A DNA stretch of 64,000 nucleotides from Brassicibacter mesophilus (GTDB taxonomy: Bacteria > Bacillota > Clostridia > Tissierellales > Proteiniboraceae). The first letter of the stretch is position 1. Every line of letters starts with the position of its first letter. Below are positions 38,676-38,839 of the stretch, in pieces. The position numbers and the translations under genes were made by a program. The notes beneath the pieces are model-generated. The model saw nothing but the letters and a program-made list of their open reading frames with translations. It had not been told where the DNA came from and searched no databases. Location: NCBI RefSeq assembly GCF_050433385.1, contig NZ_JBNPXI010000003.1, forward strand, positions 159,939 through 223,938. The letters are read 5' to 3'.

Positions 38676-38839
38676 AGTCGTAGGTACATAGTCTGCGATT
38701 TTTTGATTTATATTTTAATGCACTTTTTGTGTCTTTTGGAATAATATAGTCGTGGGCTTAATGCTTACGACTTTTTTATATGTTTTCTTGTATACAATAA
38801 AGTAATAAAAAGTCGTAGAGTAGCTATCTGCGGCTTTTT
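38676..38839 (+). repeat. three tandem hairpin+U-tract repeat units (AGTCGTRG-N9-13-CTGCGR/ACGAC-TTTTT) spaced 72 and 63 nt
   Basis: R1 38676-38706, R2 38748-38777, R3 38811-38839; each forms 6-7 bp stem (with G.U) + T5-6. Confidence 0.5.

Follow-up and report, generated by a model that had tools for sequence, protein, structure and literature searches.

The subject of this analysis is the 5′ leader of a peptide and GNAT-fusion operon in a 64,000-nucleotide stretch of the Brassicibacter mesophilus genome (contig NZ_JBNPXI010000003.1; the whole stretch is called the window, and positions are counted from its first letter), where three hairpin and U-run units, R1, R2, and R3, stand in series between a short upstream open reading frame (the uORF, or ORF A) and a set of tandem genes for peptides of about 30 residues. 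By their sequence features and conservation the three units are intrinsic-terminator-like stop signals, and the leader that bears them, conserved and previously uncatalogued, has one sensor (the uORF together with an anti-antiterminator, or AAT, helix) followed by serial terminators with cross-complementary arms, rather than three independent attenuators. A uORF-controlled attenuator at R1 is well supported; a relay of the switch to R2 is moderately supported; and a relay to R3 holds for the window without being general, its support being weak in half of the other loci. The explanation we favour, although we put it slightly short of an even chance, is a ribosome-dependent transcription attenuator which would follow anti-antiterminator/antiterminator/terminator (AAT/AT/T) logic in a zipper-like form, and in which one sensing event may spread through the serial terminators; ribosome-dependent or zipper-type attenuation with serial, cross-complementary terminators would be new.

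All parts of the leader lie on the + strand. R1 (38676-38705), the first intrinsic terminator, is AGTCGTAGG, 7 nt, TCTGCGATT, and T6, with a 9-bp stem that includes G.U pairs; R2 (38748-38778), the second, is AGTCGTGGGC, 5 nt, GCTTACGACT, and T6, with a 10-bp stem; and R3 (38811-38840), the third, is AGTCGTAGA, 7 nt, TCTGCGGCT, and T5, and appears bidirectional when its core (38811-38835) is extended by the A5/U5 flanks to 38805..38843. Start-to-start distances are 72 nt from R1 to R2 and 63 nt from R2 to R3, with spacers of 38 to 47 nt. An earlier note on this DNA had described three units with this position, strand, and spacing, each a G.U-containing stem followed by a U-run, and the description holds: a pattern scan finds them at 72 and 63 nt on the + strand, and terminator scan and folds agree on their terminator-like character. 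The joint pattern AGTCGTRG-N5-15-YTRCGRYTTTT occurs three times in 64 kb, at R1, R2, and R3 (0.00 expected, 100 shuffles), and the 5′-arm motif AGTCGYRGR four times against 0.38 expected, a tenfold enrichment, the fourth site being intragenic at 3641. A generic terminator scan flags all three units (4 sites per 4 kb vs 1.0 ± 1.0 expected), and each has a G+C-containing stem of at least 5 bp, a short loop, and an immediate U-run of 5 to 6, as intrinsic terminators do. Folded singly, R1 is the weakest at -8.1 kcal/mol (z -2.5), compared with -14.8 (z -5.7) for R2 and -17.3 (z -6.2) for R3. R1-R3 are real and non-random. The minimum free energy (MFE) fold of 38640-38900 (-72.7 kcal/mol, z -7.3) is not three separate hairpins; it is nested and cross-paired, with the R1 5′ arm on the R2 3′ arm around the R1 3′ arm on the R2 5′ arm, and the arms are therefore thermodynamically interchangeable.

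A search for the same repeat elsewhere returned no copy besides R1-R3 within the 64-kb window, and found it in the related strains L117 and L118; a genome-wide repeat resembling repetitive extragenic palindromes (REP) or miniature inverted-repeat transposable elements (MITE) was rejected since the arms are confined to this locus within the 64 kb. A scan of window positions 36500-41000 with Rfam 15 (cmscan, E<=10) gave no family at its gathering score. RsaF, a small RNA (sRNA) of S. aureus, matched 38742-38857 over R2-R3 at 30.9 bits against a gathering score of 60; the match covers two terminator-like hairpins and was judged spurious, and the remaining sub-threshold matches, to miRNA and snoRNA models, were treated as noise. 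Nor did the L113 and L049 leaders have any match above gathering (cmscan, E<=1).

The earlier note had taken the hairpin-bearing region for a non-coding gap between small ORF A and ORF B inside a putative operon. It does not separate two ordinary genes of an operon, being instead the 3′ part of a 5′ leader of about 340 nt in total, in which ORF A is the leader reading frame. Upstream of the leader is a gene for an SDF-family transporter (end at 38378), served by a separate, strong terminator that is bidirectional and lies at 38388-38431 (-20.6 kcal/mol). The leader promoter, as read from the sequence, spans 38466..38494 and has the -35 element TTGCAG (38466-38471), a 17-nt spacer, and the extended -10 element TGaTATAAT (38486-38494), so that transcription would start at about 38501; a generic scan misses it because the -35 element agrees at only 3 of 6 positions, and TTGC and GTGnTAnnAT are invariant columns in a 5-locus alignment. 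The uORF has its Shine-Dalgarno (SD) sequence GGAGG at 38535-38539, its ATG at 38550, and its stop at 38642 (30 codons: MITMLGITNLNKIEYTAKNNGLRIGVKVNL). The first genes 3′ of the terminators are four tandem genes for peptides of 30 to 31 residues (38898..39367, + strand; likely starts 38898, 39020, 39146, and 39272; period 122-129 nt), each preceded by a strong SD. The first of these SDs is 45 nt from R3, and in that interval neither the generic scan nor reading by eye found a promoter-like site on the + strand, and the upstream gene is separately terminated; expression of the peptide operon would therefore need read-through of R1, R2, and R3.

Loci for comparison were gathered from genomes and metagenomes with the GNAT-fusion protein as query, the leader being sought only beside the GNAT gene. 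About 12 lineages of Tissierellales, other Clostridia, and Bacillales contribute 22 loci, orthologous or analogous, at which the leader recurs in the same order: a TTGC/TGnTATAAT promoter, GGAGG and an ORF, 1 to 4 hairpin and U-run units, and then one or more short peptide genes and/or the GNAT-fusion gene, which at about 1030 codons is the constant partner of the leader across loci. The 14 clostridial loci are the window, Proteiniborus L001, L005, L081, and L111, L106, Sporosalibacterium L108, L109, Dethiothermospora L002, Thermohalobacteraceae L065, L110, L113, L114, and L116. Their leaders have a conserved promoter and GGAGG with an ORF of 24 to 47 codons, followed by hairpin units in varying number: 8 loci have three, 2 have three but with 100-240 nt inserted after R1, 3 have two, and 1 has one. 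The other 8 loci, Bacillales and others (Fictibacillus, Neobacillus, Alkaliphilus, and the metagenomic L082), have an analogous leader with a uORF of 21 to 28 codons and 1 or 2 terminators, directly 5′ of a short peptide gene and the GNAT-fusion gene. The units are thus conserved in orthologous loci; a lack of such conservation is one of the results that the earlier note had said would refute it. Strains L117 and L118, which are near-identical and share synteny with the window, differ from it in the leader by one substitution only, U to C in the R1 5′ arm; this turns a G.U pair into G-C both in R1, where C-G replaces U.G, and in the first antiterminator (AT1, below), so that both pairings are kept. 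By eye, no such leader was seen at the GNAT homologue loci L107, L112, and L115.

Two side observations concern the layout of individual loci. In the Proteiniborus-type loci L081 (5258-5496) and L111 (4441-4543) the insert between R1 and the next hairpin is structured and 100-240 nt long; it is followed by two hairpins 8 nt apart, between which the antiterminator pairing is perfect (CCUACGGC/GCCGUAGG). In the Bacillales-type loci L013 (~9880-9960), L022, L082 (~3700-3790), and L049 (~9895-9935) a single short peptide gene lies between the terminators and the GNAT-fusion gene, MIIIQLTNFSNVEVIEDG, MINKTYEEICKIVEVIVDA, and MIQYRKSRQ being examples of the peptides.

The comparison also bears on the proposal of the earlier note that the units are remnants of decayed peptide-gene units, each of which kept its terminator. 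Tandem peptide genes do lie directly downstream of the units in the window, but a hidden Markov model of 18 peptides, run against six-frame ORFs, has no match in the spacers (38640-38890, E<=10); the units have a period of 63-72 nt compared with 122-129 nt for the peptide genes; no such hairpins follow the live peptide genes; and L109 has a series of three hairpins without any peptide genes, while in the Bacillales loci the hairpins accompany short peptides unrelated to the tandem clostridial peptides. We consider this origin hardly credible. Because of L109 and the unrelated Bacillales peptides, the hairpins belong to the leader of the GNAT-fusion operon and not to the tandem peptide genes.

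The switch at R1 would depend on two short segments of the leader. Segment 1 (AGGCCGTGAA; RNA AGGCCGUGAA) at 38537..38546 covers the last 3 nt of the SD GGAGG and forms the 5′ strand of the AAT helix. Segment 2 (ATAACGGCCTGCGAAT) lies at 38605..38620 within the uORF (codons 19-24); its 5′ half (AUAACGGCCU, codons 19-21) is complementary to segment 1, and its 3′ half, CCUGCGA, to the R1 5′ arm (UCGUAGG). Both pairings use the same CCU and are therefore mutually exclusive. In AT1 (38603..38688) segment 2 pairs with the R1 5′ arm around a central AU-rich spacer hairpin, in a zipper-like arrangement. The complementarity tracks sequence change between lineages, as seen in L113 (AGGUCGUGAA/UUCACGACCU, and CACGACCUGU paired with ACAGGUUGUG), L109 (AGGUCGCU/AGCGACCU), and L065 (AGGCUGUA/UACAGCCU).

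Both exclusive pairings withstand a comparison of cognate with deranged partners, in which RNAduplex energies for 12 lineages were set against 20,000 derangements with partners taken from other lineages. The segment 1:segment 2 duplex averages -15.9 kcal/mol with own partners vs -11.3 when deranged, and the duplex of segment 2 with the R1 5′ arm -15.3 vs -10.7; neither value was reached in any of the 20,000 derangements (p<5e-5 for each), and the control pairings of segment 2 and of segment 1 with the R1 3′ arm gave p~0.6 in the same test. RNAalifold applied to 7 full leaders independently recovered the segment 1:2 helix (7 bp, 2 covarying positions) together with R1, R2, and R3, for 38 pairs in all, 9 of them with double compensatory change. 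The R1 hairpin itself is canonical in 122/126 cells across 14 loci, and in a block alignment of the ten three-hairpin loci the helix between segment 2 and the R1 5′ arm is 83% paired, with 3 doubly changed pairs. In the window the AAT fold has -20.1 kcal/mol (z -2.9), and AT1 has an MFE of -18.4 kcal/mol (z -2.4) compared with -7.6 to -8.1 for R1 itself. In a partition-function calculation, release of segment 2 lowers the probability of the R1 hairpin from above 0.9 to about 0 in seven loci (for L065 the baseline without a ribosome is 0.52), and R1 is partly lost in L111 (0.15) and L109 (0.30); at equilibrium the test favours AT1 in 9 of the 14 clostridial loci. Because covariation and derangement tests back both exclusive pairings, we take R1 to be a regulated terminator with AAT/AT/T logic. 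The features of a leader-peptide attenuator are found together here: a maintained SD and ORF, a covarying and exclusive antiterminator, and an upstream structure over the ORF and SD that competes with the antiterminator.

The uORF is maintained as a reading frame rather than as a peptide. All 22 leaders have an SD and an ATG-initiated ORF of 21 to 47 codons, and from local base composition the chance that it would stay open in 12 independent lineages is about 2e-14. Its peptide is poorly conserved across leaders, the ORF A peptide has no Pfam or NCBIfam match, and in the Fictibacillus copies the frame of the uORF has changed while the nucleotides are kept. The geometry is more constant: the AUG lies 52-62 nt from the segment 2 CCU in 12/14 loci, the stop 11-28 nt past that CCU, and the start of R1 21-82 nt past the stop. 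Since geometry is conserved and the peptide is not, ORF A is a leader reading frame and not a protein gene.

Eight clostridial uORFs share one short peptide motif, K/R-I-E-Y/N (codons 12-15 in the window, 38583-38594), 4 to 5 codons before segment 2. Its codons vary synonymously among uORFs (AUU/AUA, UAU/UAC), which hints at constraint at the level of amino acids and possibly at an arrest motif. A ribosome stalled there would reach about 38604-38607, and would cover only that part of segment 2 which pairs with segment 1, a suggestive position.

Alternatively, the promoter, ORF A, and the triple terminator could be an independent short unit for a small gene or small RNA, strongly insulated by its three stops, with the peptide genes transcribed from a promoter of their own past R3. 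In L001, L005, and L106 the peptide genes are separated from R3 by an AT-rich stretch of 130-290 nt, room for a separate promoter and to that extent a difficulty for the attenuator; in L002 a promoter-like GTGACT-17 nt-TATACT overlaps R3; and a terminated leader could be a stable RNA of about 200 nt. In the window, however, no acceptable -35/-10 pair lies in the 45 nt from R3 to the SD, and this also applies to L109 and the Fictibacillus loci; the peptide of ORF A lacks conservation, its frame shifting while its nucleotides are kept; and an antiterminator that covaries with the R1 5′ arm would be purposeless if termination were always wanted. We regard an independent unit as improbable. The small structured RNA that the earlier note had offered as one possibility could, within an attenuator, be a by-product, the terminated leader of about 200 nt.

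The same arms that form the terminators could also pair with one another. Stems are alike within a genome and change in concert between genomes, being AGUCGYRGG/YCUGCGRCU in most loci, AGUCAYRGG/CCURUGRCU in L002, and ACCACAGG/CCUGUGGU in L110, L113, and L114; as a consequence, each hairpin has a 3′ arm complementary to the 5′ arm of its successor. Two further antiterminators follow from this in the window. Antiterminator 2 (AT2, 38688..38760) joins the R1 3′ arm to the R2 5′ arm; antiterminator 3 (AT3, 38760..38823) joins the R3 5′ arm either to the R2 3′ arm or, with the R2 hairpin enclosed between them, to the R1 3′ arm. Each inter-arm segment, AT1 included, was folded by itself and forms a long hairpin whose arms close around a small spacer hairpin. 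AT2 has an MFE of -17.0 kcal/mol (z -3.7, 0/200 shuffles) vs -14.2 for the R2 hairpin, and AT3 -14.1 kcal/mol (z -2.8) vs -11.2 for R3. At the tip of AT2, between R1 and R2, is a spacer hairpin, GCAC-UUUUU-GUGU (38720..38732), which is kept in L106, L001, and L005 and, as AUGCAC-U6C-GUGUAU, in Fictibacillus (L049 ~9790-9808) despite differing terminator stems; it may be a pause hairpin, or the site at which AT2 nucleates.

Across 13 loci the pairing of the R1 3′ arm with the R2 5′ arm is canonical in 112/117 cells, on a par with the hairpins (112/117 for R2) even where the stems are ACCACAGG or AGUCAUGGG; that of the R2 3′ arm with the R3 5′ arm is canonical in 70/90 cells of the block alignment. 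In that alignment, which was registered by hand on the AGG/CCU anchor and so favours the hairpin set, the OFF set (1:2, R1, R2, and R3) is 92.7% paired with 14 doubly changed pairs, and the ON set (segment 2 with the R1 5′ arm, the R1 3′ arm with the R2 5′ arm, and the R2 3′ arm with the R3 5′ arm) 85.9% paired with 8, each with 0/500 shuffles; slid-alignment controls are 26-41% paired. Cognate partners outdo deranged ones for the R1 3′ arm and R2 5′ arm (p=0.007) and for the R2 3′ arm and R3 5′ arm (p=0.025 and 0.007). If AT1 is imposed on the fold, 12/13 loci have the chain within -2.0 to +3.7 kcal/mol of the R2 terminator; the OFF and ON states are near-isoenergetic at R1 and R2. In the window the R1 3′ arm pairs with the R3 5′ arm at 9/9 positions, 3.6 kcal/mol better than the R3 hairpin.

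Several observations weigh against the attenuator and its relay. At R1, freeing segment 2 in the window lowers the probability of the hairpin only from 0.95 to 0.71 at equilibrium, and in L106 and L001 the partition function does not weaken R1 at all. Segment 1 precedes the start codon and could therefore be masked directly only by an initiating or early ribosome. The uORFs have no regulatory codon run for one amino acid in common, Asn being enriched in the Proteiniborus group only; an amino-acid-sensing subtype of the trp or his kind was rejected on this ground, and if the leader is an attenuator it should therefore belong to a stall or antibiotic-type subclass. At R2 and R3, both hairpins mostly stay folded at equilibrium in most loci after segment 2 is freed, so that a relay would need to be kinetic. 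For the R3 chain by way of the R2 3′ arm, only the window, L081, and L111 come out near-neutral, and the cost is +5 to +20 kcal/mol in 7/10 loci; by way of the R1 3′ arm the cost outside the window is +2 to +7.5 kcal/mol. L109 lacks AT2 and AT3 complementarity and L108 lacks that of AT3. Finally, the similarity of stems within a genome could come from duplication history rather than from selection for cross-pairing.

These points give room to an alternative in which only R1 is regulated by the uORF, R2 and R3 being unregulated and partly efficient back-ups that lower basal and induced expression alike, with a resemblance that stems from tandem duplication and a cross-complementarity that is its by-product. 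The equilibrium folding of R2 and R3, the greater stability of R3 over the chain state (5-20 kcal/mol in 7/10 loci), the missing pairings of L109 and L108, and the variation of hairpin number from 1 to 4 among loci, which makes extra hairpins dispensable, all speak for it. Yet R2 is strong (10 bp, -14 kcal/mol, U6), and two unregulated stops after a weak R1 would nearly cancel the induction of genes with strong SDs; the R1 3′ arm and R2 5′ arm are still 96% canonical across lineages with diverged stems, and cognate pairs are better than deranged ones at p=0.007; Bacillales leaders with two unlike stems still fold the 3′ arm of the first terminator onto the 5′ arm of the second; and the R1-R2 spacer hairpin that would nucleate AT2 is conserved as far as Fictibacillus. 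On balance regulation of R1 alone seems to us unlikely, if a good deal less so than an independent unit.

A bypass in trans would also account for the series of terminators, since multiple stops in a leader are typical of processive antitermination systems, which override more than one terminator where local attenuators do not (PMC13401043, PMC12691694). The bypass could be by a system of the LoaP, EAR, or put type, or by an sRNA or RNA-binding protein for which the AGUCGYRGG arm, present in each hairpin, would be a repeated binding site. Three leaders were scanned without an Rfam match to EAR or another leader RNA, however, and no NusG-like or antiterminator protein is present among the 10 neighbouring proteins scanned at the locus (DUF4349, aminotransferase IV, SDF, M29, MFS, GNATs, amidohydrolase, and TldD/PmbA). 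The loops are not conserved, and the arms change between lineages while complementarity to segment 2 persists, for which reason RNA-RNA pairing fits better than a protein site. A bypass of this kind is, in our judgement, very improbable.

The attenuator that we favour would work as follows. In the OFF state, which would be the default when no ribosome is engaged or after fast translation and release, segment 1 would pair with segment 2, R1 would fold and halt RNA polymerase, and R2 and R3 would stop any leak-through. In the ON state a ribosome held at initiation or within the first ~15 codons would separate segment 1 from the 5′ half of segment 2, whose other half, CCUGCGA, would then take the R1 5′ arm; the orphaned R1 3′ arm would take the R2 5′ arm before the R2 3′ arm is made; and the freed R2 3′ arm, or the R1 3′ arm used again, would take the R3 5′ arm. 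Translation of the uORF, switching by ribosome position, and the kinetic working of the relay are inferred parts of this scheme. The nearest precedent for an inducer would be antibiotic- or product-induced stalling, as in vmlR-type leaders. A bolder version, which we advance only tentatively, is that uORF sensing is passed through all three terminators (pairings 1:2, 3:4, 5:6, and 7:8 giving way to 2:3, 4:5, and 6:7) and that K/R-I-E-Y/N is a programmed arrest site which exposes the R1-pairing half of segment 2. The earlier note had listed a repeated attenuator set among its suggestions, and part of this survives: the units are terminator-like, are conserved with compensatory changes, and have alternative pairings, although one sensor serves them and they are not three independent attenuators.

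The operon behind the leader is itself conserved. Tandem peptides, encoded by 4 to 7 genes of 27 to 45 codons, each with a strong SD, are found in the window, L001 (9373-9924), L002 (9046-9877), L065 (6985-7602), L106 (4334-4915), and L108 (3037-3770). In the window they share the C-terminal motif K-x-D-x-G-L-x-E-Y-x-K-L-E-x-R, and across loci K-(K/R)-D-x-G-L-E-E-Y-L-K-L-E-(Y/F)-(R/K)-(R/K). They have no match in Pfam or NCBIfam, and a profile of the family compared with 5.8e9 proteins returned 18 matches, all unnamed; they look like multi-copy precursor peptides of an undescribed system. Farther downstream, and presumably dependent on read-through as well, are + strand genes identified by Pfam as an M29 aminopeptidase (39470-40579), an MFS transporter (40610-41872), and the 1032-residue GNAT-fusion protein (41895-44993). 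In the last, a GNAT domain at residues ~8-150 precedes ~880 all-beta residues (AlphaFold2 pLDDT 85.9, pTM 0.69); Foldseek against the PDB found only generic beta-sandwich arrays (complement C5, LacZ) at TM ~0.1-0.18, and sequence search only GNAT domains. Its more than 1100 homologues, in Firmicutes and some Cloacimonadota, are all annotated as GNAT only. The GNAT-fusion gene is followed at 45005-49818 by genes for an Amidohydro_2 protein, a double-GNAT (MshD-like) protein, and a TldD/PmbA peptidase pair, a set also found in L106, L111, and L108.

A further hairpin lies between the last peptide gene and the M29 gene (39400-39434 in the region 39398-39478; -20.5 kcal/mol, without a U-run on the + strand). 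Its 5′ arm repeats AAATGGCAGAT, the region of the M29 start codon 70 nt downstream, so that its 3′ arm could pair with the M29 translation start. Similar GCAGAT...ATCTGC hairpins stand 3′ of the last peptide gene in L106, L111, and L081.

The set of precursor-like peptides, GNATs, M29 and TldD/E peptidases, amidohydrolase, and MFS exporter is compatible with a peptide natural-product pathway, and tight control hints at an operon product that is costly or toxic. We wish to stress what a relay would mean if it is true: RNA alone would multiply termination in the OFF state without loss of inducibility, a design principle of use in synthetic biology, and would give near-zero leak with full inducibility to a system of tandem peptides and a GNAT/beta-sandwich enzyme which possibly makes a new peptide natural product. 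For annotation, such leaders look like "too many terminators" and escape Rfam, and this one flags a conserved operon in many Firmicutes, with rare tandem peptides of 30 residues, a GNAT-fusion, M29 and TldD/E peptidases, and an MFS exporter.

Described attenuators have, to our knowledge, one terminator per sensor, and the his leader has an alternative hairpin chain (A:B, C:D, E:F vs B:C, D:E). The AAT/AT/T logic was demonstrated experimentally in the vmlR leader of B. subtilis (PMC9226507). Like the vmlR, trp, and his leaders, the leader described here has a short uORF with its own SD, an AAT helix that includes the uORF, an antiterminator that overlaps both the AAT and the terminator 5′ arm, and an intrinsic terminator before the first structural gene. 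It differs from them in that i) each downstream hairpin of the chain is itself a U-run terminator, three in the window and 1 to 4 in relatives; ii) segment 1 is at the SD and not inside the ORF, and the uORFs share no regulatory codon run; and iii) the genes it precedes, for tandem peptides and the GNAT-fusion, are not a known resistance or amino-acid operon.

A second likeness is to cATT of the pLS20-family conjugation operons, in which a central hairpin is flanked by the complementary 3′ strand of a weak upstream stem-loop and 5′ strand of the terminator, and the central stem "zips" outward to form the antiterminator (PMC13401043). The minimum-energy structures of AT1, AT2, and AT3 share this zipper topology. 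cATT has a single terminator, lies on plasmids upstream of the conAn1/conAn processive-antitermination genes, and is reported without a uORF or ribosome involvement (PMC13401043), whereas the leader here is chromosomal, belongs to a peptide/GNAT operon, has no sequence relation to cATT, and joins three zippers in such a way that the 3′ arm of each terminator is the 5′ flank of the next zipper. The resemblance is one of mechanism, not of membership.

Tandem riboswitches and T-boxes likewise place serial terminators in one leader for tighter or more digital control, but each of their terminators has its own ligand- or tRNA-binding domain, whereas a single sensor, without an aptamer or Rfam match, serves the series here. 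Processive antitermination (LoaP, EAR, put, and conAn) also lets polymerase bypass several intrinsic terminators ahead of a long operon, often one for secondary metabolites, but does so through a dedicated protein or RNA that modifies RNA polymerase, none of which was found here among Rfam matches and the 10 neighbouring proteins. Covarying complementarity from arm to arm points to local RNA refolding rather than to modification of the polymerase.

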